54,182 bases of DNA from a virus (lineage: Duplodnaviria; Heunggongvirae; Uroviricota; Caudoviricetes): IMG/VR virus record IMGVR_UViG_2585427735_000009, one strand, 5' to 3'. The position numbers and the translations under genes are program-made. How positions within the stretch are numbered: position 1 is the first letter of the stretch; each line of letters opens with the position of its first letter. The notes beneath the pieces were generated by a model that made no database searches, was not told the origin of the DNA, and saw nothing but the letters and a program-made list of their open reading frames with translations. Positions 34,725 to 52,704 of this stretch are shown piece by piece.

Positions 34725-35960
34725 CTACGATAACCGCGCATTCAACATGGCTATCTGTTCGTCGTTCATGTCATCAATCCACATACCGTAAATTTCATAC
34801 ACCATCTGCGCAGTTTCATGCCCCATTTGGCTGGCTATAAATGCCGGGTTCGCTCCTGCCGTCAACAGCCAGCAGGCAAAAGTATGCCGCGTATGGTACG
34901 GATTACGGCGGCGAATACCAGCACGTTTTACTGCTGCATTCCACCTTGCCCCCAAACTGCTTACCGAGTAATAAGGTTTTTGTTTTCCGTTACACACCCT
35001 GGGCATGAAAACAAAATGCAGTTTTTGCTTTTCGGTTCTGCCGTACTCCCGATGATAAAAGGTGATTTCGCTTTTGCGATGATGCCCGGTCAGTTTGTAT
35101 TGCTCCTTCAGTGCTTCAAGAGCAGGCTGCAGTAGTGTTACTGTTCGGATCCCGGCATTTGTTTTTGGGGGACCGAACATATCAAGTATCGTCAGGTTTC
35201 TTCTGACATTCACTATTCCCTTTTCGAGATCCACATCCTCCCACGCCAGAGCTGCCAGTTCCCCGTGACGAAGTCCTGAGTAAACGGCAAATTTCCACAA
35301 GTTCTGGCTCTGTCCTTTTTCACTTTCCATTAATGCATTGAATTCTGTTTTAGATAACGGATCAGGCTTTATTCTGTTTCGCTGTAATTTTTTTACTCCT
35401 TCAAATGGTTTGGTTGATATAAATCCCGACTGATACGCAAAACGCAACAGCGAACAGAGCAGGGCGATATAGTTATCAACTGTGCGCACGGTTCTTCCTT
35501 TTTTGTTGGATCTTGGATTATCCAGGTAAAGCGTTTCTCCATGCAGCAGTTCATTCCGGTAGTTTAAGATATCGCTATAACGAATATGTGATATCGGGGT
35601 ACTTTCACAAATTATTATTCTGAGTGTTTTTAATTGTGATTTCGTTTTCTTCATTGTGTTTGTTGTTAACTCTGTCTCTTTAATTTTTGTCCAGATATCA
35701 CAAAGCTCTCCGAACGTTTTTATGACTCTCGTTGTCACCATTTTTGCCCCAGTGCTGGACTGGGGAAAACGTCTTAAATACTCAAATTCACCGGAGTTTA
35801 TTTCATGAACTATCAGCGCTCTTAAATTTCCGGCCTTTTTAATATTACTGTTTGTAATCTCCCAGCCTTTTAATGTTTCCCGACATCGTTTTCCTCGAAA
35901 CATGAACCAGATGCGAATGTATCTACCTCTAATCTCGACACCTGTTGGTAATTTAGACAT
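34725..35960 (-). CDS. intR: Tyrosine integrase (Rac IntR-like)
   Basis: 411 aa; C-terminal catalytic region with RHTFA...H..Y-type residues; adjacent to ttcA attachment site. Confidence 0.92.
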   Translation of the reverse strand: MSKLPTGVEIRGRYIRIWFMFRGKRCRETLKGWEITNSNIKKAGNLRALIVHEINSGEFEYLRRFPQSSTGAKMVTTRVIKTFGELCDIWTKIKETELTTNTMKKTKSQLKTLRIIICESTPISHIRYSDILNYRNELLHGETLYLDNPRSNKKGRTVRTVDNYIALLCSLLRFAYQSGFISTKPFEGVKKLQRNRIKPDPLSKTEFNALMESEKGQSQNLWKFAVYSGLRHGELAALAWEDVDLEKGIVNVRRNLTILDMFGPPKTNAGIRTVTLLQPALEALKEQYKLTGHHRKSEITFYHREYGRTEKQKLHFVFMPRVCNGKQKPYYSVSSLGARWNAAVKRAGIRRRNPYHTRHTFACWLLTAGANPAFIASQMGHETAQMVYEIYGMWIDDMNDEQIAMLNARLS

Positions 35961-36708: not shown

Positions 36709-37518
36709 TTATTCCTCTGAATTATCGATTACACTGTATTCCCCGGTTAATACAGAGGAATCTGCAGGATCGATTGTCAGTGGTTCCTTTTCATCCATTG
36801 ATACTGCACGCTGGATCTCAATTGATACGGGCAGATATTTGAACAGGCGACGAATAGCCGTTTTCTTTGCCATTTCTTCCCAGTGAGTTACCCACGGCCC
36901 GTTATTACCAGCTTTACTCAGGCTGCGCACCAGCTCAATCTGTTTGCGCGTCATAACTTCAAACTGAGTACCTCCGTCTTTCAGTCTTGCGACAGCATAG
37001 ACGTGGGTAACCGGGGCATCTTCGTTTTCTCCCGGGCGGTGTATTAACTTTTCATCAAGGCCAAATTCGAAGCTAAACTCGTCACCTTCACGGACAACAC
37101 GGGCTGACAGGCTGGCGATTTGACCAGAACGGCGAGCCAGATCAATCATGCCGCGATAGCCAATGATTAGCTGAACGTTCTTTTTACCGCTCTTTTCGTT
37201 TTTATTACCAAAAGGCAGTAAATATGCATGACCGAGGGCGCTACCTGGCTCAAGTCCGAGCTGTGAACACTGTACGATCGCACTGACAAAACTCATAGTG
37301 TCACAGTTTCCTAACGCCGGAACTTTACGAATTTCTGTGGTGGCGATACGGATCATACGTTCAGCCGTCATATGGCGTGGAAGAGCTGCTGCCAGTTGCT
37401 CTTTCATTGATGGCTGGTTAATAAAACTAATCACGTCGCTATTTTTAACTGCTGCTGGTGCACGGTTTCCCTGAGTTTTTTGCAGATCGGCTTTTGCGAT
37501 TGGTGGTTGCTTAGTCAT
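36709..37518 (-). CDS. recT: Recombination protein RecT
   Basis: ATG at 37518 ([13 protein letters not shown]...), 269 aa; downstream of recE with 8-nt overlap. Confidence 0.92.
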
Positions 37519-40111
37519 TTGCATATTCCTTAGCCCAGCGGGGCAGTGATAATGTCTTAATAGCTGGCCATTCATCGGTATTCAGGCAGTCAGACAGGGT
37601 TCGCAGATTGCGGTGATATTCCTGTTGACCTGCCAGTTTTGCTTCTTCGCCCATCATGAAAATTTCAACCGGATAACGTCCGCATTCAATAGTTGTGCTG
37701 GCAACCAGAAAAACGAAAGTTGGCTGCACTCCAAACTGTGCTTCATAACCGTCACTGTAGAATGCATCCTGAACGTGATAGCGGTAGTCGTAATAAGCGG
37801 TTTTGAATCGTTGAATATCCGCCGTAGTTTTCACGTCCATGATCCAGTGAAATTCAGGGATAATTTTGTCCGGACGGCACCGACACAAAATTCCTGTTTC
37901 AGGATCTTCCCAGTAAATTGATGATTCAGCGTGTCCGGCGCTTTCAACAAGCCATTGCCCCAGCGGCAAAGCCATAACGCTTTGATACATGAGTTCAATT
38001 TTCCGGCCTTCTTCCGCAGTGATAACCGTTTTTCCTGTGCTTGCGCATTCCATCAGAAACGCTTTCTCTTCTTCTTTTCCGGCGTTTGTACGGCGGTTAA
38101 ATTCAGGTGCTACGATAAAGCGGTTACTGAATTCTTCCGGTTCAAGTACCCGGCAGTGGAAAGCAGTTCCTAAATCGAGCGTTTTTGTCTTTGTGGTGTC
38201 CACGGGGGCATTTTTACGCCACAAATATAGTGCCGGAGTATCAGCAATGTCATCGAGCTGAGACTTACTGATACCGGGACCCGCGTGGTAATTCTCATTC
38301 GAAATTCCGTAATAAATACCTGGCTCTATGTCTTCTACGATTACGGGATCTGCGACTTCGCCAGTTTCATCACTGCAATCGCGATGCGGATCGCTGCCAG
38401 CATTCTCATTGTGCGGATGTTCAGCGCCTTCCATTTCCTCCGGATCATTTTCCTTAGCTTCAACCTGACTCTCTTCAGCGAATGTTTCCTGGTATGTTGC
38501 GTCCCCCACCCCCGCCCCACAGTCAGGGCAGTTACCCCCGCCAGTCTGGCCGCAGGCATTGCAGGCTATTTCCGGTTCCTGTTGCACTACTGGCTCAGGT
38601 TGATTCATATCTGGGCTGGTTTTTTCCGTTTCTGGCTGGTTCTGGTACACACAATCGCGAGTCTGGATCCCCTTTACCCATTTCGGATCGTTCGGGTCGC
38701 TAATTCCGTCAACAAATTCACCACGTGATGCAGCAAGCAATTTATCGGCATCGACAGGATTTTTTGATGGAATGTTTTTCCGGGCTTCATGGAGTTCTGC
38801 CCGCAGTTCCTGATATTTCGCATCAACAGAATTTACCTGTGACTGAGCATCCAGCGGCTGCGTGTCCTGATGATGTTCAGTTGCGTCCGGTTCCATTGTT
38901 TCAGCCTCTCCCTGTTCAACTGCCGTTGTTCCAGATGGTTGCGGTTTTTCTTCATCATCCTGTTTTCCTTCTTCTGTTACTCGCTGCGGCATCGGGGCAG
39001 AGGAGCGACCGCAGGCAATATCCACGATTTCCGGATCAGGGTTGGCATGATCGGTTTCAGTCAGTACTTTGTTCAGATATTCAGTGACGTGCGCGGGGAT
39101 GACCTCGATCCCAATTGGTGCTTCTTTTACGGACGCAACCACGATGGCGCGGGAATAATCCAGCCCGCCAGGCATGGTGATGAATTTGTCGCGGAAAACA
39201 GAAAAGGGCGGTTTATTTTCAGCGATAATTTCCTCAATGCGTTTAGCGTGTGCCGGATGAAGGTTATAGATGTCCAGATCCATTGAACGGGCCAGTACGC
39301 CAGTGGCTACGTCGCGCGCCAGTGACGTCAGATCGTGTACGAAACTTTCGCCGCGATCGGTGAGGTTTCCGCCGCCAGCATTAGCACCGGAAGCCGTGCG
39401 AGTGATGTGTGAAACACGATTACCCTTCATCCACTCTTTTGTCAGCAGTCCTCGATCGGTGTAGTCAGCGTTCAGGTATGCTTCGAAAAAAGCAGTTATC
39501 AGTCCCAGGTTTGAATTACCAGGATTAGGGAAAACTTTGTCAGTGTCACGAACCAGTTTGTGGAGTTCGCGAATTTCCAGCGGGTCGAGCAGGCTGGTTT
39601 TGTGGGAAACAGCCAGGGCAGTAACAGCCGGTAGTTCTTCAGCCCGAGCAATGTGTAATGCCTGGAGTCCGTCGCGTGAAACGTGCGTTACCGGTTTTTC
39701 GCTGCCGTGTTGAGCAAGCCAACGAATGGGCAGTTCCTGGCCAGAAATTGGGAGTAGCATATTCTCCTCAATCTCAGTCATGTCTTCGCCGTTGACGTTG
39801 GTATTGCCTTGATAGTGAGCGTTGTCTGGTGCTGCTCCCGGTTTTAGTTCCCATGTCATGGAGTCTTTGCTGAGTTGATAGCGTTCACTCCAGGTAAAAT
39901 CGATCTCACCTTCAGCGGGCAGGTCATTAACGACAGGAAAATTCGTGGCAACAGCTTTAAAATAGCTGCTCAGTTTTTTACCTGACTTAACGATCAGGTA
40001 GTCCAGAGTGGCACAGGTCGATTCAAAATCGTTGCTTGCCCACAGGACGACGTCAGGTTCACCGGATGATTTTTTCGCTTTCCGTAACAGGAAGAGTGGT
40101 TTTGTGCTCAT
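37511..40111 (-). CDS. recE: Exodeoxyribonuclease VIII (RecE)
   Basis: 866-aa ORF; acidic central region and C-terminal nuclease domain; size as recalled for K-12 RecE. Confidence 0.92.
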
Positions 40112-43641: not shown

Positions 43642-43686
43642 TTGAAATTAATCGTACCGAACTGTTTTGTTCGGTATCAGTTAAAT

Positions 43687-44104
43687 GTAACGCTGCGAGC
43701 GTTACAAGGTGAAAACAAATGGCTTCAAACTGGATAAAGCTCGAAGTTATTACGCCGGATAAGCCGGAAATATTCAGGCTTGCTGAGATTCTGAATATTG
43801 ATCCAGATGCCGCATTAGGGAAAGTCATTCGCTTCTGGGCATGGGCGGATCAACAAATGATAGACGGTAACGCAGAGTGTAACGCTCGAGGCGTTACAAA
43901 AAGTGCAATAGACCGTATCACTTTTATGGCTGGTTTTGCTGATGCGTTAATTCAGGTTGGATGGCTGGTCGAAAGTGATGGAGTGCTTTCACTACCAAAC
44001 TTTGAGCGTCATAACGGAAAAAGCTCGAAAAAACGGGCGGTTACAAACGAGAGAGTTACAAAAATACGCGAACTGAAGCGAAAAGGTAACGCTGCCAGCG
44101 TTAC
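43687..44104. repeat. Three perfect palindromes GTAACGC-N5-GCGTTAC plus GTTACAAA half-sites (putative iterons/origin)
   Basis: Palindromes at 43687..43705, 43879..43897, 44086..44104; extra half-sites near 43867, 44039 and 44054; one upstream of and two inside the ydaU reading frame. Confidence 0.55.
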
Positions 44105-44507
44105 ACAAACGGATCAAAAAGCGTTACCAGAGGAAGAGGAAGAGGAAGATATAAATACTGATCTCCCCCTAAATCCCCCTCGGCAAAAACGAGCGTCTAA
44201 ACAATTCGAGCCGGAGGCCATTGCTCTGCCCGACTGGTTGCCAGAAACACTCTGGAATGAGTGGGTCCAGTTCAGGCAGGCATTGCGAAAACCGATTCGA
44301 ACGGAGCAGGGCGCTAACGGGGCGATACGGGAACTGGAAAAATTCCGCCAGCAGGGTTTTACCCCTGAGCAGGTGATTCGACACAGCATCGCCAATGAAT
44401 ACCAGGGCTTGTTCGCGCCGAAAAGTGTTCGGCCTGAGACGTTGCTCCGACAGGTTAACACTGTCTCGTTTCCGGACAGTGCGATCCCGCCAGGCTTCAG
44501 GGGGTAA
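43719..44507 (+). CDS. ydaU: Replication initiation protein (lambda O-position, YdaU-like)
   Basis: 262-aa ORF directly upstream of DnaC-like gene; acidic linker (EEEEEEDINTD); contains iteron-like palindromes. Confidence 0.7.
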   Translation: MASNWIKLEVITPDKPEIFRLAEILNIDPDAALGKVIRFWAWADQQMIDGNAECNARGVTKSAIDRITFMAGFADALIQVGWLVESDGVLSLPNFERHNGKSSKKRAVTNERVTKIRELKRKGNAASVTQTDQKALPEEEEEEDINTDLPLNPPRQKRASKQFEPEAIALPDWLPETLWNEWVQFRQALRKPIRTEQGANGAIRELEKFRQQGFTPEQVIRHSIANEYQGLFAPKSVRPETLLRQVNTVSFPDSAIPPGFRG

Positions 44508-44513
44508 CTGACC

Positions 44514-45260
44514 ATGAAAAATATTGCGACAGGCGGCGTTCTGGAACGTATCCGCAGACTGGCCCCGCCACATGTAACCGCGCCATTCAGGACGGTGGCG
44601 GAGTGGCGCGAGTGGCAACTTGCAGAAGGCCAGAAACGTTGCGAGGAGATCAATCGCCAGAATCGTCAGTTGCGGGTGGAAAAAATTCTGAATCGCTCCG
44701 GCATCCAGCCGTTGCACCGCAAATGCTCGTTTTCGAATTACCAGGTGCAGAACGACGGCCAGCGATACGCGTTGAGCCAGGCGAAATCCATCGCCGATGA
44801 ACTGATGGTCGGGTGTACAAATTTTGCGTTTAGCGGAAAACCTGGTACCGGAAAAAACCATCTGGCGGCGGCTATCGGGAATCGCCTGCTGAAAAACGGT
44901 CAGACAGTGATTGTGGTTACCGTGGCTGATGTTATGAGTGCTCTACACGCCAGCTATGACGACGGGCAATCAGGCGAAAAATTTTTGCGGGAACTGTGCG
45001 AAGTGGATCTGCTGGTTCTTGATGAAATTGGCATTCAGCGCGAGACAAAAAACGAGCAGGTGGTACTGCACCAGATTGTTGATCGCCGGACAGCGTCGAT
45101 CCGCAGCGTGGGGATGCTGACAAACCTGAACTATGAGGCCATGAAAACATTGCTCGGCGAGAGGATTATGGATCGGATGACCATGAACGGCGGGCGATGG
45201 GTGAATTTTAACTGGGAGAGCTGGCGCCCGAATGTTGGTCAGCCAGGAATTGAGAAGTAA
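44514..45260 (+). CDS. ydaV: DnaC-like helicase loader (IstB-like AAA+ ATPase)
   Basis: 248 aa; Walker A GKPGTGKNHLAAAIG, Walker B LLVLDEIG. Confidence 0.85.
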   Translation: MKNIATGGVLERIRRLAPPHVTAPFRTVAEWREWQLAEGQKRCEEINRQNRQLRVEKILNRSGIQPLHRKCSFSNYQVQNDGQRYALSQAKSIADELMVGCTNFAFSGKPGTGKNHLAAAIGNRLLKNGQTVIVVTVADVMSALHASYDDGQSGEKFLRELCEVDLLVLDEIGIQRETKNEQVVLHQIVDRRTASIRSVGMLTNLNYEAMKTLLGERIMDRMTMNGGRWVNFNWESWRPNVGQPGIEK

Positions 45261-45282
45261 TTTTTACCGGGAGGAAATTTTA

Positions 45283-46008
45283 ATGGAGACCGTTTTTGAC
45301 GCACTGAAAGCAATGGGAAAAGCCTCTTCCCAGGAAGTGGCAGCACGTCTGGGAATGACCCGGGATGAGGCGATTAACGAGCTGTGGAAACTGAAGCGTC
45401 GTGGGGAAGCTGATAACAAGGGCCCGATGTGGTGGTTGACTCAAACCGACGAAAACGCATCTGTAGCACAGGCTTCTAAAGTGACAGCGCAAATGCTGAT
45501 CGAGGCGATTGAACAGCATGGCCCTAAAGCGGCTGATGAACTTGCACTGATATTCAGAATTACTTCCCGCAGGGTGAACTCATCGCTGGCTATGGCCATC
45601 AGCAAAGGTCGTCTGATTCGCGTAAATCAGAACGGTAAATTTCGTTACTGCCTGCCGGACGGTAATTTACCAGCAGAGCCGAAAGTTGTATCGGTAGTGA
45701 AAACACCTGGTAAAGGCTTTCCTCAGCCAGCCGGTGTTGCGTTACCAGTACAGGAAGCGGCAACACAGGAAGAAATTAAAACAGATACTGTGGGGGACAT
45801 TGTGCAGTCACTACCATCGTTCACTGAAACGCGAGCCAATGACCTGATTATACCATCGCTGCAAATGGCAAACCGCGAACTGCGCCGGGCGAAAAGTTAT
45901 GTCCAGAAGTGGGAGCGAGTCTGCGCCGCGCTGCGTGAGCTGAACAAGCACCAGGATATTGTCCGTCAGATTGTCGATTCCTCCAGTCGTATTGTGTCGG
46001 AAAAGTGA
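45283..46008 (+). CDS. Hypothetical winged-helix protein (YdaW position)
   Basis: ATG at 45283 with GGGAGGAAA RBS (METVFDALKAMGKASSQEVAARLGMTRDEAINELWKLKRRG...). Confidence 0.45.
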   Translation: METVFDALKAMGKASSQEVAARLGMTRDEAINELWKLKRRGEADNKGPMWWLTQTDENASVAQASKVTAQMLIEAIEQHGPKAADELALIFRITSRRVNSSLAMAISKGRLIRVNQNGKFRYCLPDGNLPAEPKVVSVVKTPGKGFPQPAGVALPVQEAATQEEIKTDTVGDIVQSLPSFTETRANDLIIPSLQMANRELRRAKSYVQKWERVCAALRELNKHQDIVRQIVDSSSRIVSEK

Positions 46009-46024
46009 TTCCTGGGGAGGGCTT

Positions 46025-46447
46025 ATGGCAAAAGTATTTACACAGGAAGAGCGAGAAAAAATTAAAGGGCAGATTGTTGATCTTGTACGCCAGAGCGGGC
46101 GAGAGACGTTACGACAACTGGAAGCTAAAACGGGGGCGACAAGATATCTGATAAGCGCTCTTGCTAGGGAGTTGGTTGCGAATGGTGATGTATACAACTC
46201 TGGCTATGGGTTATTTCCGTCTGAGCAGGCACGTCAAGACTGGCAAAACGCCCGCAAAAAACTATCGAGGGCAAAGGTGAAGAAACCAGTTGTGGTTGAT
46301 CTGGACCTTATTTGGTCATTACCAGACGGAGAAATACGTCGCTACGACAGGCGTCTGAACATAATTTGCCGTGAGTGCCGGAAGAGTGAAGTTATGCAGC
46401 GTGTATTAGCATTCTATCAGGGAAATGTTCGGTATTTATTGAAGTGA
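46025..46447 (+). CDS. Hypothetical protein with N-terminal wHTH-like region
   Basis: ATG at 46025 with GGGGAGGG RBS (MAKVFTQEEREKIKGQIVDLVRQSGRETLRQLEAKTGATRYL...). Confidence 0.45.
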   Translation: MAKVFTQEEREKIKGQIVDLVRQSGRETLRQLEAKTGATRYLISALARELVANGDVYNSGYGLFPSEQARQDWQNARKKLSRAKVKKPVVVDLDLIWSLPDGEIRRYDRRLNIICRECRKSEVMQRVLAFYQGNVRYLLK

Positions 46448-46656
46448 CGAGATTAAAGACCATTAATTCATATGTGAATTGACAGTTTCATGGCACAGGA
46501 TACGGCTAGCGTGGTTGTCTGTTTTGTGCCAGGGGCGGGCCTAACTAAGTTCACACAACATTGATTATTGAAGATTAGGTCAGAAATAAATAGGTTATTT
46601 TGATAATTTAGTTACGTTAGAATGCCGCAGTGTACAAAGTAAAAATGAGGAATAAT

Positions 46657-48018
46657 ATGACTCGGAGTGAAATAAACGTCTGGGATAAGAGACGAGGCAC
46701 CAATAGTCATCGTGTGGAGGAGATTCGATCTGAAGCTCAGCACGACCTTTCTCGACTGATTCACTCGTCTGCTTTCAGACGATTGCAATCCAAAACACAG
46801 GTTCTTGGTCTGGGTGAAAGTGATTTCTACCGCACACGACTGACTCATTCTATGGAAGTCGCACAAATCGGTTCAGGTCTTCTTGCTAAGCTGAAAATAA
46901 AATATAAAGGTAAAGAGCAAGAGCAATTTTTACCAGATAACGATCTTATGCAGGCAGTATGTCTCGCACATGATATTGGACATCCTCCATTTGGTCACGG
47001 CGGTGAGGTAGCTCTTAACTACTGTATGCAGGATTACGGTGGTTTTGAAGGAAACGGTCAGACACTTCGCATTCTCTCGAAACTAGATAAGTATACCGTT
47101 GAACACGGACTCGATCCTACACGCAGACTTCTGCTAGGCATACTGAAATATCCGGTTAAATACTCGGATCTAGTGGTTACAAAAGACAGAATCCCGGCCA
47201 CTATCGGATCGCCGAACTGGCTCTTTAAGTCATCTGATTTTAAACCTCCAAAATGCTATCTAGATTCAGAATGCGATGTTGTAGAATTTGCTCTTTCACC
47301 ATTTACTGAACAGGATCGGAGGCTTTTTACTTCCGTTGAAGATGGTCAAACTAAATCCGATCATAAAAAAGCTTCTTATAAAGCTCTCGATACAACCATC
47401 ATGGATCTTGCCGATGAAATTTCGTATTCGCTGCACGATTTGGAGGATGCTATTTCTCTCGGAATGGTGACACGAGAAATGTGGATGGAGCATTTCAGTG
47501 AATATGAAACCCTATTTACTAACTGCCATGGAGAAACATTTTCCGCAACATGTGAATCTGTCGCGGATAGCCTTTTTGGTGAAAGTTACAAGAGAAAAGA
47601 GTGCATCGGGATGCTGGTTCACCTGATGATTACAAGCGTTGAGCTTATTACAAAGAATCCAGCATTCGAATGTGGCATGCTCAAATATAATGCGGTCCTT
47701 CCGGAAGCGGTCGAAGCACTACGGTTTAAAATTTTCAAACTGGTCAAAAATAAAGTAATTAAGCATGAAAATGTACAGCAGCTTGAATTCAAGGGACAAA
47801 AGTTGATTGTTGAGCTTTTCGGTGTGCTGGCTAACGATCCGTGTCGGTTTCTACCGGCATCAACGAGGGAAATTTACGAGCGGCAGACTAGCTTGGACGA
47901 GAAGGCTGGTATGCGAGTCATTTGCGACTATGTTTCAGGGATGACTGATGACTATGCAACAAAGCTTTATGAGAAGATCCTTATTCCACGCAAAGGGTCT
48001 ATTTTTGACCATCTCTAA
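46657..48018 (+). CDS. dGTP triphosphohydrolase (Dgt-family HD-domain dGTPase); candidate anti-phage dNTP-depletion enzyme
   Basis: ATG at 46657 with GAGGA RBS; motifs AFRRLQSKTQV, RTRLTHSMEVAQIG, AHDIGHPPFGHGGE, LADEISYSLHDLEDA match Dgt HD-domain signatures as recalled; AT-rich relative to Rac core. Confidence 0.82.
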   Translation: MTRSEINVWDKRRGTNSHRVEEIRSEAQHDLSRLIHSSAFRRLQSKTQVLGLGESDFYRTRLTHSMEVAQIGSGLLAKLKIKYKGKEQEQFLPDNDLMQAVCLAHDIGHPPFGHGGEVALNYCMQDYGGFEGNGQTLRILSKLDKYTVEHGLDPTRRLLLGILKYPVKYSDLVVTKDRIPATIGSPNWLFKSSDFKPPKCYLDSECDVVEFALSPFTEQDRRLFTSVEDGQTKSDHKKASYKALDTTIMDLADEISYSLHDLEDAISLGMVTREMWMEHFSEYETLFTNCHGETFSATCESVADSLFGESYKRKECIGMLVHLMITSVELITKNPAFECGMLKYNAVLPEAVEALRFKIFKLVKNKVIKHENVQQLEFKGQKLIVELFGVLANDPCRFLPASTREIYERQTSLDEKAGMRVICDYVSGMTDDYATKLYEKILIPRKGSIFDHL

Positions 48019-48079
48019 TGCGGCAAGAATGATGCTCTGAGTTCAATTGACCTATAAACATTAACCAAGGCATCTACCA

Positions 48080-48099
48080 GGGGGATATCAAATCCCCCC
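48080..48099 (+). terminator. Hairpin GGGGGAT-ATCAA-ATCCCCC, candidate terminator after dGTPase gene
   Basis: 7-bp G/C-rich stem 62 nt after the dGTPase stop, followed by a weakly T-rich stretch (ATTCTGAATTTGTT). Confidence 0.4.
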
Positions 48100-48428
48100 A
48101 TTCTGAATTTGTTCGTGCAGAATCGGTGAACGTTCTCATCTGAGCGTTAAACGCCAATAATCGTTGATCTACATTGATCATTAATACACCTTAATACCAT
48201 TAGCGTCTTACTCCGTTATGAGAACAAACGCGAACTGACCTGCCCCCAGTATTAGTGACCTTCAGCTACGGTAACTTGTCCGCTTCGTGCCAGAAGCGGA
48301 CATCCATAGAGAAATAAGCGATCAGTTCTTAAATTTGTTGTGATTTTTTGATTTTTTTGTATTCGCAAAGGGATTTGTGTTGGTTGTATAATTACCTAAT
48401 ATTCATACAGTTGAATGGGAGATGTGGG

Positions 48429-49322
48429 ATGAAGTTCTCGTACAGACATGGTTTTGATCCTGAGTATAATAAAAAGCCGATACGGGAAGATGCTCCAGAG
48501 TGGCTTCGCTCTTTATTTTTTGTAACTGTCCTCGATAATTTTTTGTACATTGATGGTGATAGCCGCATTACGAATGATGAGAACAAGCCGTTGGGTATTA
48601 AGGCTTTGATCGAGCGACTTTGCGCAGAGAATGGTCAAGAAACAGATCATGAGGATTTCGATTCATGGTACTGCTATGATGCTTTGAAAGCGCGTTTGCA
48701 ACATATGCGTTGGTTTCAATTTTATGATGCTGTTGAGATTATCGGAGATCTATTAAGAAAAAGAGATGTAGAAAGAGGCCATACTTGGGGTAAGAAGGCA
48801 TTAGAAGACATTACTTTTACATCATATCGTCAGAAATTGAACGAGTTATTCGCATCTCGAAATATTGACTGGAAAATGAATTCTGCTGGTAGGTTAGAAA
48901 CACCACTACCAAATGAATTAGAACAAAAAATCGATGAAACTAACAACTTATTGCAAGACCAGTTTGAACCTGCAAGGAGGCACTATGTGAAAGCCCGGGC
49001 TTTTGCATTAGGTGCGCATAAGGATCCAGAAAATTCCATAAAAGAATCAATAAGTGCAATAGAAAGCATGTGTCGGACTTATTATCCTTCAGCCTCAACC
49101 TTGGGCGATGTATTAAAACTGATGAGAAAAGAAAACACTATCTCACCTATGCTTTTAACGGTGATAGAGAAATTTTACGCTTATACAAATGCAGAGCCAG
49201 CAGTAAGACATGGTAGCAACAAGGTTTCTTCTGTCTTGGAATACGATGCTGAATTCGTGTTGCATATATCAGCAGCATTTATTAGAACAATAATACAAAG
49301 AAAAGCTGTTTTGGATAACTAA
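48429..49322 (+). CDS. Hypothetical protein, possible Abi/HEPN-like abortive-infection candidate
   Basis: ATG at 48429 (MKFSYRHGFDPEYNKK...), about 297 aa, AT-rich; possible R-x6-H motif (RAFALGAH) in C-terminal half; upstream extended -10 TGTATAAT near 48386. Confidence 0.5.
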   Translation: MKFSYRHGFDPEYNKKPIREDAPEWLRSLFFVTVLDNFLYIDGDSRITNDENKPLGIKALIERLCAENGQETDHEDFDSWYCYDALKARLQHMRWFQFYDAVEIIGDLLRKRDVERGHTWGKKALEDITFTSYRQKLNELFASRNIDWKMNSAGRLETPLPNELEQKIDETNNLLQDQFEPARRHYVKARAFALGAHKDPENSIKESISAIESMCRTYYPSASTLGDVLKLMRKENTISPMLLTVIEKFYAYTNAEPAVRHGSNKVSSVLEYDAEFVLHISAAFIRTIIQRKAVLDN

Positions 49323-49562
49323 GTCAGACTTACAGCCAACTGACTGTCTCTTATTATTCAAAACATAATAATGTTAGGTCCGCTTATCGCACATCAGGGA
49401 CAACCATACTCAAATCTCCCACATTGCAGGAGATTTGAGTGTGAACACGTCACCGTGGAACAAAGACTGTATCATCGGTCAAAAAAGACCTGGTTATCTA
49501 GCAAAAACTTTTAACATACCAACAAACTTAATTTATTTAAATGCTATTAATACAACTAATGT

Positions 49563-50789
49563 TTAAAATATATATTTTATATCAACCCAATTTTTAGCAT
49601 TATTGTCAACTAAAGTAACGCTATGTCCATGACTTGAATTTATAGCATCGATTACTGATTGTGATGGGTGTCCATGTGAATGACCATCCGACTGAGCTAT
49701 AAACAAAACATTATCAAAATCCGCAATTATTTTTTGATTGAAATTTAATTCCGAACCATGATGAGGTAATGTCATCACCCTTACCGTTTTAATCACTTTT
49801 GAATAGAATTCAGCCCATTTATTATAATACAATGATGTATTAAGCTTTGAGTCACCTGTTAATAAAACAGATCTAATTCCTTTATCTCTATCAAAGAGAA
49901 AATGTCGCTCAACCCGACTATTTCTAAAACTAAACCACTCACGAGAAGGCTCATTAACAATTTTCATCTCAGCTTCTTGATTATTAATAATCAAGAGATT
50001 GATTGATATTACATTATGATCGCCAGCAAGTTTTAAATAACACTCGCGTAATTTCTTTCTTTCCCCCGTGCTAGTTAATATTTTAAGCATTTTTTTCTTA
50101 CTTAACTCAGTAAAACCATTTTCTATTAACTGCTGACTGAAAATTTCAATTTTCTTACGTGAACGGGGCGGTATCCAAGAAATAAATGACATTAGTGTAT
50201 CAGTTTTGTTTTCCCCAATCCTTTTAACCAACCAACGGTTACATTCAACATCTCCTTTGGAGTCAGATATTTTCATTGGTAAGCTTACAGCGCTATCCTT
50301 AATGTTTTCACTATTAAATATAGGAGGGTCAAAATTATCATCAATATCACAGGGGTAAAGCAAAGATATATCTACCTCAGGCAACCTTGATTTTATCCAT
50401 TTGACAGGATCAATGAGAAATTCCATAAAAAGACCTGACGTAGAATTAGAGCATAGCTCCGATGCAATTAAGTAATAGCTATCATGGATATCTAGGTATG
50501 GTAATACAACCTTGCGTATTTTGTTATCTACAAGCTGACATAAATGGTCAAATCCATTTATATGGTCTGAATCCAAATGAGAGATGTATACCACATCAAT
50601 ATATTTCTCATCAATATTAAAGAGAGATTTAGCCACATCCATCTCCCTACGCAACGCATTTAATTGGTCACTTCCGCAGTCATACACATAACTGTAAAGC
50701 AAACTACCATCCCTTCCCCTCAGTCCGCCTAAACTAAATCCACCCTGGCCAACGGGAAACAATCTTTTATGAAATACTTCTCCGCTCAT
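49563..50789 (-). CDS. Standalone metallo-beta-lactamase-fold hydrolase (ComEC-type motifs), candidate nuclease
   Basis: 408 aa, ATG at 50789 with AAGGA RBS; MBL motifs HLDSDH (HxHxDH), LTGDSKL and LPHHGS; very AT-rich. Confidence 0.7.
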   Translation of the reverse strand: MSGEVFHKRLFPVGQGGFSLGGLRGRDGSLLYSYVYDCGSDQLNALRREMDVAKSLFNIDEKYIDVVYISHLDSDHINGFDHLCQLVDNKIRKVVLPYLDIHDSYYLIASELCSNSTSGLFMEFLIDPVKWIKSRLPEVDISLLYPCDIDDNFDPPIFNSENIKDSAVSLPMKISDSKGDVECNRWLVKRIGENKTDTLMSFISWIPPRSRKKIEIFSQQLIENGFTELSKKKMLKILTSTGERKKLRECYLKLAGDHNVISINLLIINNQEAEMKIVNEPSREWFSFRNSRVERHFLFDRDKGIRSVLLTGDSKLNTSLYYNKWAEFYSKVIKTVRVMTLPHHGSELNFNQKIIADFDNVLFIAQSDGHSHGHPSQSVIDAINSSHGHSVTLVDNNAKNWVDIKYIF

Positions 50790-51503
50790 ATATCCTTCTT
50801 ACACCCTAACGTGATCATAAAATTGTCTTAAAGTTAAGTTTAAAGCTAAAAAGTCACAGCTCATTCCAACTCGTGAGCAATAGGAATGTATATTCAATCA
50901 GTTAGAGGATCAACCCGATTTTCTCTAATGAGATTTCGCAACGCAGTACGAACAGCAGCTACTTCTGCCATCTCATTAACAACCACACTGGACTACAATC
51001 CCCTAAGTTCTACAGACTGTAACCATATCCTCTTCACAGAAATAATCTGATTAATGCTGAAGGTCATCTTTCTCGACGCGAATGTATGACATAACAACCT
51101 CAGTTAATTATCTTTCGATAGAAAAATACCTTCACAAAAGGTTTAAGCAACCCATCACAAGACAACACGCTAAGCTTGCCTTGTAAGCGTCCTGCTTAAC
51201 CGAACAGTTCGCTTTCAGAGGATCTCCGGAGAACAGCTCCGATGCCTTATAAGGCCAATGCTCGCTCCTCGCTCACTGCGGACCTAAGGTTTGGTCAGCT
51301 TGTTCGCACTCTGCCAAAAGCGGGAGTTACTCCCATTCGGTGTTAATCAATGTAGAGCAGATCAATCAACGACAAAGAAAATGAGAGGCATATCACTACT
51401 CATATGAAAATTATTGTAGTAAAGTGAGCCGTAAGTTCATCATTTATAAATCATATAGCATATATGTTATATCAATTTTAATTTAAATGGCAGAATAATT
51501 ACC

Positions 51504-52208
51504 ATGGAAAAAATTAAAACTCCTTGTCCATATTGTAAAGGTGAAAAAAATTGCCACATAATAGGCCATAAAAAAAGAGAATGGAGTGAGGATGATGGGG
51601 GCAACTATTTTTGGGCTGAAAGTGAATACAAATTATTAGAGTGTATGGGGTGCGACGGAATATTTACATATATTAAATCCCGTCACAGTGAAGATTACGA
51701 CATTGAAAGAGATGAGTCAGGCTATGATTGTATGGTATATAACTATCATATATCAACATATCCCACTCAAGAGCAAGAAGAGATTAGACCAACTTGGTTT
51801 GGTGAGACATTAAACAAAGATCGTCAGCTGTATGTAATAATGAACGAAATGTACATCGCATTTCAAAATAAATCATTCATTTTAGCGGCGATTGGACTTA
51901 GAACTATTTTTGACAGAACAGTTGAGGTTCTAAATATTCATCCAGGATATACATTAGGCCAGAAGGTTGACATTCTTAAAGAGGAAGGTTTTATTGGGGA
52001 AACAGAAAGGAGCCAACTTAAAATTGTAACCGAAGCTGGCAACTCAGCTGCACACAGGACATGGGCACCGAACGAAACTGAATTTAAATCGCTTTTGGTA
52101 ATTATAGAAAATTTTGTAATGCGAACAATACTAAAAAATGAGGATATATTTAAGATTACAGAAAAATTACCTGCGAAATATCCAAGACCTCCCAAAAAGC
52201 AAGAATAA
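51504..52208 (+). CDS. Zinc-ribbon protein with DUF4145/HEPN-like C-terminal domain (candidate Abi-type effector)
   Basis: 234 aa; N-terminal CPYC-x-CH ... CMGCDG zinc ribbon; C-terminal AAIGLRTIFDR...GETERSQLKIVTEAGNSAAH resembling the DUF4145 GNxxxH signature as recalled; AT-rich. Confidence 0.55.
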   Translation: MEKIKTPCPYCKGEKNCHIIGHKKREWSEDDGGNYFWAESEYKLLECMGCDGIFTYIKSRHSEDYDIERDESGYDCMVYNYHISTYPTQEQEEIRPTWFGETLNKDRQLYVIMNEMYIAFQNKSFILAAIGLRTIFDRTVEVLNIHPGYTLGQKVDILKEEGFIGETERSQLKIVTEAGNSAAHRTWAPNETEFKSLLVIIENFVMRTILKNEDIFKITEKLPAKYPRPPKKQE

Positions 52209-52704
52209 TGTACGTAAGTGTAAATAGAGCTAAGAGATTATATATTGACTCTGGTTATCTCTATTAGCACATGCTTTTTGTAATGCCTTAACTGATTATT
52301 TAAACTCCTGTCAGCTTTTCGCTCAAAGCGGACTAAAGTGTTGGCTTGTGACTGACTTAGCGCATTTAAGGAAGTGGTGGTGGTGACGGGGTGTTGTGTC
52401 CCATTTCCACAGAATAAATCAGAGAAACTATAGCGGCTGTAATGGCAATCTATGGTCTTGCTATTGCTCTTATGGATCACCTTTCTGATTGATTTCATAT
52501 TGGCGAGGTAACGGGAGTTAAGTAGAATAGCTGCGGGTGCTTGAGGCTGTCTGCCTCGGGCATGAACACCAAAGGCAGATAGAGAAAAGCCCCAGTTAAC
52601 ATTACGCGTCCGGCAAGACGCTTAACATTAATCTGAGGCCACATCTATGCTTTGCATACGTAGATTAGCCTCTTACCGACCAAAAGGTCAAGGAGAAGCA
52701 GGCT

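Follow-up and report, generated by a model that had tools for sequence, protein, structure and literature searches.

The ydaW and lygF genes, encoding predicted winged-helix proteins, close the replication module of a Rac-type lambdoid prophage

Results and Discussion

The two genes analyzed here, located on the plus strand at positions 45283-46008 (ORF1) and 46025-46447 (ORF2) of a viral DNA stretch of 54,182 nucleotides (IMG/VR record IMGVR_UViG_2585427735_000009; referred to as the window), are the final pair of genes in the early-lytic replication block carried by a Rac-type lambdoid prophage of Escherichia coli. ORF1 encodes a ydaW-type protein with DUF1627 (241 amino acids), and ORF2 a lygF-type protein of the DUF977 family (140 amino acids) that is, as judged from profile comparisons, a longer homologue of lambda Ren. 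This result is chiefly a tidying of annotation, by which the two genes become the end of a phage replication module. The functional leads are limited to two, lambda Ren versus Rex and K-12 YdaW versus the retron-Sen2 toxin, and both point toward counter-defence.

Identification and conservation of the two genes

The initial annotation had placed two consecutive ORFs, each with a strong ribosome-binding site, after a DnaC-like gene, and both limits of the pair, 45283 and 46447, were exact. ORF1 has its ATG at 45283 and its TGA at 46006-46008; for ORF2, the start and stop codons are the ATG at 46025 and the TGA at 46445-46447. The same two CDSs are called in identical RefSeq DNA. The ORF1 start is found 22 nt past the TAA (45258-45260) of the DnaC-like gene, and 16 nt separate the ORF1 stop from the ORF2 start. 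The ribosome-binding sites were borne out by a reading of the sequence: a GGAGG Shine-Dalgarno motif is located at 45270-45274 (plus strand), 8 nt 5' of the ORF1 ATG, and a second at 46016-46020 (plus strand), 4 nt 5' of the ORF2 ATG and within the 16-nt gap. Longer starts that are mechanically possible (45232 and 45959) are not used by the homologues, all of which open with METVF... and MAKVF..., respectively.

Both genes are real and under purifying selection: the median dN/dS values against 77-78 distinct homologous sequences from IMG/VR were 0.294 for ORF1 and 0.094 for ORF2, and the higher value of ORF1 fits the variable linker in its product (see below). When a 1301-nt query spanning both genes was used, 100% identity was found in at least six complete RefSeq chromosomes of E. 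coli, and a partial match in 3947 of 5426 complete genomes (~73%). DUF977/Ren and DUF1627 genes are, by this measure, among the commonest prophage genes of E. coli. A scan of genome contigs gave 13 loci in Escherichia and Shigella, a range that is only a lower bound because the scan needed an exact peptide pattern.

Both proteins were already catalogued, with RefSeq entries and Pfam and PHROG families. ORF1 corresponds to WP_000450652.1 ("DUF1627 domain-containing protein"; identical DNA) and belongs to the family named ydaW in records of phage Rac, while ORF2 corresponds to WP_021554373.1 ("DUF977 family protein") and belongs to the family named lygF in phage Rac, Rac-SA53, and related records. 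A literature search with LygF, DUF977, DUF1627, and the Pfam and PHROG accessions found no functional study.

Domain structure of YdaW (ORF1)

ORF1 matched Pfam DUF1627 (PF07789) over the full profile (positions 1-155 of 155; residues 76-230) with 286.1 bits and E = 7.6e-86, far above the gathering threshold of 28.1 bits, and phrog_630 with E = 2.8e-113. When 1.84 billion cluster representatives were scanned in full with HMMER, only 162 relatives of DUF1627 were obtained at E <= 1e-3, and the family is therefore small.

The AlphaFold2 model of ORF1 (mean pLDDT 65.5; pTM 0.31) suggested a layout of four parts, which is kept in full-length relatives down to ~22% identity. The first predicted winged helix (amino acids 1-53; 45283-45441, plus strand) consists of helices 4-11, 16-23, and 27-39 with a pLDDT of ~80, and its wing was modeled with low confidence. 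The second (amino acids 67-125; 45481-45657, plus strand) was predicted with a pLDDT of 85-90 and consists of helices 69-79, 84-91, and 95-107 and strands 112-116 and 119-123. A putatively disordered linker rich in Pro, Ala, and Glu follows (amino acids 129-184; 45667-45834, plus strand; pLDDT 30-43); pLDDT is below 50 over about residues 129-188, and the length and sequence of this part vary across relatives. The C-terminus was modeled as a single long helix (amino acids 185-240; 45835-46002, plus strand; pLDDT 70-82), whose motif PSL..AN.ELRRAK..VQKWERVCAALRELN is near-invariant among close homologues and is still recognizable as EIRRTK..L..LE.LR in distant ones. This helix is probably an element for oligomerization or partner binding.

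The YdaW protein of the K-12 Rac prophage (b1361) occupies the same slot after ydaV and shares 55% identity with ORF1 over the two winged helices. Unlike ORF1, it was shortened by the Rac deletion, at about residue 150, and is devoid of the linker and the conserved C-terminal helix; the same deletion removed lygF from K-12 Rac altogether.

Domain structure of LygF (ORF2) and the fold of both proteins

ORF2 matched Pfam DUF977 (PF06163) over positions 1-133 of 134 in the profile (105.7 bits, E = 2.6e-30; gathering threshold 22.1 bits). Its AlphaFold2 model (mean pLDDT 74) contains an N-terminal winged helix (amino acids 7-64; 46043-46216, plus strand), with helices 7-24, 29-36, and 40-53 and a β-hairpin at 57-64 predicted with a pLDDT of ~90. 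An additional predicted helix (67-83) is followed by disorder at about residues 86-112, and the C-terminal part, referred to as the Ren motif (RRLNIICRECRKSEVMQRVLAFY; amino acids 109-131; 46349-46417, plus strand), was modeled as a hairpin of two helices (109-119 and 122-131) with a pLDDT of 60-74. The LygF/DUF977 proteins of E. coli and Salmonella prophages, including those of Rac-SA53 and mEp460, show 86-94% amino acid identity to ORF2 and have the same length and position, and only the last few C-terminal residues differ by lineage.

The initial annotation had described N-terminal regions resembling winged helix-turn-helix domains in both proteins. The models and Foldseek supported this fold, a three-helix bundle with a β-hairpin wing, with the refinement that two such domains, not one, were predicted in ORF1. 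The top Foldseek matches in the PDB were all winged-helix domains for both models (probability ~1, E 0.003-0.1): FeoC (TMt 0.84; rmsd 1.2 Å), Zalpha, AspA, and the tandem winged-helix protein ScpB for ORF1, and the winged-helix domain of Rpa2, AraR/GntR, CadC/ArsR, and MarR for ORF2. These E-values are weak, and therefore the fold is supported, but not the family. Kinch et al. 2009 (PMC2686095) had earlier assigned DUF977 to this fold.

Searches at the level of sequence gave no assignment to a family of regulators: all MarR/ArsR/GntR-type profiles in Pfam and NCBIfam remained below their cut-offs (FeoC, 19.4 vs 21 bits; MntR, 14.7 vs 153; ArsR, 13.9 vs 55), and the Pfam profiles FeoC and MarR_2 were sub-threshold for ORF1. 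In a search of PDB chains with both sequences, the best matches (E >= 0.001) were to a designed repeat protein and to the chaperone CupB2 and were not meaningful; a Foldseek search of ORF2 against the viral models of BFVD returned generic winged-helix matches, none at E <= 0.001 and none specific to Ren. Individual domain folds appear to be shared with the MarR, GntR, and ArsR repressors and with tandem winged-helix proteins such as ScpB, whereas the dimerization helices and ligand domains of the MarR type are missing from both ORF1 and ORF2.

A look-alike segment (SLP...RELRRAK in ORF1 and RECRKSE in ORF2) raised the possibility that the two proteins are paralogues; this was rejected (BLASTP, E = 0.61; hhalign, probability 0.2%). 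A conserved C-terminal helical part in both proteins is an observation beyond the initial annotation.

Relationship of LygF to lambda Ren

Both ORFs had been placed at the lambdoid ren/nin position, and the comparison of ORF2 with lambda Ren agreed with this. ORF2 matched phrog_142 ("Ren-like exclusion protein") with E = 1e-46 over residues 1-137, and lambda Ren (96 amino acids; J02459) matched the same family with E = 1.6e-41 over residues 1-95. In BLASTP, only the C-terminal motif was aligned between the two proteins: NIICRECRKSEVMQRVLAFY in ORF2 against NLVFKECRQSAAMKRVLAVY in Ren, with 11 of 20 identities. When the DUF977 profile was compared with the profile of the Ren family by hhalign, a probability of 95.8% and E = 7.5e-9 were obtained over 27 columns, again the C-terminal motif, and the winged helices were left unaligned. 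MAFFT put the winged helices of ORF2 and Ren in register at ~25% identity, with an extra N-terminal segment and an insert of ~45 residues in ORF2. Beyond the 27-residue motif, the sequence similarity of ORF2 to Ren shows through the PHROG profile only. Lambda Ren itself matched no Pfam family, and DUF977 was not reached at E = 0.1. The Ren family is small (155 clusters).

The two proteins have in common a predicted N-terminal winged helix and the C-terminal motif N-x-I-x-x-E-C-R-x-S-x-x-M-x-R-V-L-x-x-Y, and both are encoded by the last gene of a block of initiator and helicase loader read, presumably in the case of ORF2, from the early rightward promoter. They differ in length (140 vs 96 amino acids), ORF2 having in addition an N-terminal helix segment, the helix at 67-83, and a disordered insert at 86-108, according to the model. 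The gene arrangement also differs: ORF2 is parted from the loader gene by ydaW and 16-nt gaps, whereas lambda ren has overlapping stop and start codons and, as stated in the supplement of Thomason et al. 2021 (10.1101/2021.04.19.439022), closes a co-translated O-P-ren unit. The same study describes ren as carried by phages with modules of initiator and helicase loader.

ORF1 showed no significant relation to ORF2 or Ren. A candidate relationship of ORF1 to Ren through winged helix 1 was weak (phrog_142, E = 6.7e-5; hhalign, E = 0.009 and probability 4%) and was not retained.

Position of the pair in the replication module

Upstream of the pair, the window contains a gene for an O-like replication initiator (43719-44507, plus strand), which had no Pfam match, and ydaV (44514-45260, plus strand; RefSeq name ydaV), which encodes a DnaC/IstB-like helicase loader (Pfam IstB_IS21, E = 1.4e-19; Bac_DnaA, E = 1.7e-8). 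The annotation of strain RM9513 is that of a Rac-type prophage: recET, kilR, sieB, a cI-like repressor gene, cro, ydaT, the O-like gene, ydaV, DUF1627, and DUF977, followed by genes for an anti-phage dGTPase, a hypothetical protein, an MBL-fold protein, DUF4145, and hokD. The GC content of ORF1 and ORF2 (0.48-0.51) is that of the replication genes. A scan with consensus sequences from ydaV to the end of ORF2, with which expression in the lysogen is still compatible, found no promoter or terminator on the plus strand. Since none splits the pair from the replication genes, ydaW and lygF would belong to the early lytic operon.

Neighboring genes were surveyed by tblastn and clustering in the best 80 IMG/VR loci for each protein (160 loci). 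DUF1627 was located directly 5' of DUF977 in 41 of 75 DUF977 loci and missing in 34, and DUF977 directly 3' of DUF1627 in 46 of 74 DUF1627 loci and missing in 28; where the genes were paired, their spacing was constant (90 of 92 loci). The gene upstream of DUF977 fell into four families in 127 loci (DUF1627, 92; two types of initiator, 22 and 12; DnaC-like loader, 1), such that DUF1627 or a replication protein preceded DUF977 in all 127. The upstream neighbor of DUF1627 was a DnaC-like loader (64) or a lambda-P-like protein of 221 amino acids (53) in 117 of 119 loci; RefSeq labels the gene of the latter type "replication protein P" in strain NADC1036. Unrelated initiators and two unrelated types of loader (DnaC-like and P-like) are found in front of DUF977 proteins that are near-identical (87-93%) and of near-identical DUF1627 proteins. 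Individual phages show how the downstream side varies: mEp460 has LygF without YdaW and another downstream gene, the PPompW phages have DUF1627 without DUF977 and then Paa/AdfO, and in Rac-SA53 the pair is followed by rac19 and ead. Upstream neighbors are thus fixed and downstream neighbors varied, and therefore the pair is the conserved segment that ends the replication module on the right, the island behind it being one of many cargos.

The O-like gene carries or adjoins three copies of a 21-bp palindrome, TGTAACGCT-N3-AGCGTTACA, at 43686, 43878, and 44085, partly directly ahead of the gene and partly within it (copies expected by chance, 0.01). Among the 160 loci surveyed, the palindromes were present in 16 of the 17 with the O-like initiator and absent in 141 of the 143 without it; each of these loci has DUF1627 and/or DUF977. 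The palindromes track the O-like initiator; the idea that the winged-helix proteins target them was rejected, and initiator or origin sites are the better reading.

Possible functions of YdaW and LygF

We favor, with about an even chance of being correct, the reading that YdaW and LygF are accessory proteins of the early-lytic replication module with a role in counter-defence, because the leads for Ren against Rex and for K-12 YdaW against RcaT both indicate protection on the phage side against abortive infection during lytic growth. The first lead comes from lambda: a heteroimmune ren-minus phage grows poorly on Rex+ lysogens, a defect that mutations in O and P suppress (Toothman and Herskowitz 1980, as cited in 10.1101/2021.04.19.439022), and the two-hybrid data given by Thomason et al. 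2021 (10.1101/2021.04.19.439022) show interactions of RexA and RexB with O and Ren. The second comes from Bobonis et al. 2020 (10.1101/2020.06.22.160242), in which K-12 ydaW is one of the prophage genes that, when overexpressed, blocked RcaT, the toxin of retron-Sen2; this was an overexpression screen with the shortened K-12 protein, which has the two winged helices only and is 55% identical to ORF1.

The favored reading would involve the following steps. Transcription of ydaW and lygF would start at the early rightward promoter and would require induction or infection. Both proteins would act beside the replication proteins, as lambda Ren would, and the phage's own replication would be spared by resident abortive-infection systems, those countered being of the RexAB type and, for YdaW, possibly toxins of the retron type. 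Nucleic acid or a partner may be the ligand of the winged helices, and a protein partner that of the conserved C-terminal helices.

The main rival is that both proteins are pure replication accessory factors that would aid the complex of initiator and helicase loader, for example in origin remodeling, membrane tethering, or a theta-to-sigma switch, without any counter-defence; we consider this somewhat improbable. The pair invariably sits behind a helicase loader or initiator gene and is tightly packed with the replication genes, and Thomason et al. (10.1101/2021.04.19.439022), in their account of the interaction network of O, place Ren within it, describe it as "likely involved in DNA replication", and favor "some role in replication". 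However, the near-identical copies behind unrelated initiators and two types of loader argue against one specific co-evolved contact, the candidate origin palindromes follow the O-like gene and not the pair, and either gene may be missing, as seen in 34 of 75 and 28 of 74 loci. Furthermore, in the work of Hayes et al. 2013 (PMC3640518) with lambda fragments, neither P-lethality nor Replicative Killing required Ren, and we found no report that lambda replication itself needs ren. A generic replication contact, for example with host DnaB, may be compatible with copies behind unrelated initiators and loaders.

A wider form of the favored counter-defence reading is that YdaW and LygF constitute a portable two-gene cassette, carried at the end of the helicase-loader modules of lambdoid phages, that neutralizes replication-sensing abortive-infection systems of the host or of prophages, such as those of the RexAB and retron-Sen2 types. 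We regard it as unlikely in this form. In such a cassette, the trigger, nucleic acid or protein, would be contacted by the winged helices, and the effector by the conserved C-terminal helices. If true, it would provide a mechanism for the 45-year-old "ren" phenotype of lambda and widen it to a second family, DUF1627.

Boundary with the downstream cargo island

The initial annotation had suggested that the pair may regulate the downstream defence island or act in exclusion, and neither proposal found support. The first gene of the low-GC island, outside the pair, encodes an anti-phage dGTPase (46657-48018, plus strand; PADLOC, E = 1.3e-144; RefSeq "anti-phage deoxyguanosine triphosphatase"). 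In addition, PADLOC-DB 2.0 matched PDC-S32 (E = 5.8e-34) and, weakly, an LmuA-like MBL protein in the island; the same database gave no family for ORF1 or ORF2 at E <= 0.01.

It is very improbable that YdaW and LygF are DNA-binding transcription regulators of this dGTPase/PDC-S32/MBL island, in spite of the resemblance of their predicted folds to MarR, GntR, and ArsR repressors and of the direct contact between pair and island. When the 1.5 kb downstream of DUF977 was examined for its largest ORF, 43 families were found in 124 loci, and the dGTPase in only one, a locus identical to the window; with cargo this varied, the pair is therefore not a set of dedicated regulators of the dGTPase island. 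The composition changes directly behind the ORF2 stop, with a GC content of 0.40 in the bin that begins at 46400 and of 0.33-0.44 over 46400-52400, and the similarity to other Rac-type phages is lost close to the same stop codon, at a distance of a few to ~50 nt. The matches to Pfam regulators all fell under their gathering thresholds, as described above, and a defence island would have to be on in the lysogen, when a lytic operon containing the pair would not be.

We give hardly any credence to superinfection-exclusion or defence proteins expressed from the prophage to shield the lysogen, an idea that the PHROG label of ORF2 and the defence genes in the neighborhood might invite, since the label is a misnomer (Ren enables escape from Rex exclusion and is not itself an excluder, in the description of the Rex system in 10.1101/2021.04.19.439022), PADLOC matched neither ORF, both proteins were modeled as soluble winged-helix proteins without a transmembrane segment, and a place inside the repressor-controlled early operon would argue against expression in the lysogen. 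Homology to a characterized nin-region protein, which the initial annotation had named as evidence against its proposals if the function was unrelated, was found for ORF2 in the form of Ren; the function of Ren is, on the other hand, related to exclusion.

The defence island begins only after 46447, and this position sets the actual left limit of a cargo hot spot, with the 43 gene families occupying the slot.

Putative replication initiator gene and its palindromes

The gene at 43719-44507 (plus strand) was labeled as a hypothetical protein in RefSeq and gave no match in a Pfam search at E ≤ 0.1; however, in the window this O-like initiator gene occupied exactly the same slot as lambda O or ydaU. 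Three copies of a 21-bp palindrome, TGTAACGCT-N3-AGCGTTACA, with perfect or near-perfect symmetry, were detected at intervals of ~200 nt, just 5' of the gene (43686-43706) and inside it (43878-43898 and 44085-44105), against a chance expectation of 0.01. Since the palindromes were present together with the O-like gene in 16 of 17 related loci, this type of replicon probably uses them as initiator-binding sites or as origin sites. Their wide spacing differed from lambda, in which the iterons are clustered.

Comparison of YdaW and LygF with related proteins

When K-12 YdaW (L179; E. coli K-12 MG1655, 1422752-1423312) was compared with the YdaW (DUF1627) protein of the window (45283-46008), the alignment was confined to residues 1-138: the K-12 protein is a truncated version without the conserved C-terminal helix, and, therefore, results obtained with K-12 ydaW bear on the tandem winged helices only. 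Furthermore, lygF, the Ren-like (DUF977) gene, was entirely absent from K-12 because of an internal deletion in Rac. DUF977 proteins with 86-90% identity to the E. coli protein were also found, on short contigs, in metagenome-assembled genomes assigned to Gram-positive bacteria or to Veillonella: Collinsella (L167 and L168), Bacillota (L169), and Veillonella parvula (L170). These contigs most likely correspond to mis-binned Escherichia prophage, and not to true hosts.

Cargo region downstream of lygF

A strong hot spot for cargo lies in the slot directly 3' of the Ren-like gene: among the IMG/VR loci carrying DUF977 and/or DUF1627 (L006-L165), the largest ORF within 1.5 kb downstream of DUF977 belonged to 43 unrelated families in 124 loci. 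As judged by sequence alone, these families included a putative QueH-like protein, found in 26 loci, together with a putative DNA methyltransferase as well as large ORFs resembling ATPases. In the window, the cargo island 3' of lygF (46448-52400) showed a low GC content (0.33-0.44), and contained an anti-phage dGTPase (PADLOC, 1.3e-144), a PDC-S32/AbiJ_NTD4-like protein (48348-49322), a weakly LmuA-like MBL-fold protein encoded on the minus strand (49563-50789), and a DUF4145 protein (51504-52208). In the RefSeq strain with DNA identical to the window, the island was followed by hokD.

Upstream part of the window

Integrase-like and recE-like ORFs of the Rac-type prophage were located at 34725-35960 and 37511-40111, respectively. 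Ahead of this prophage, a long series of minus-strand ORFs (about 566-23000) was observed, which may be a second mobile element.
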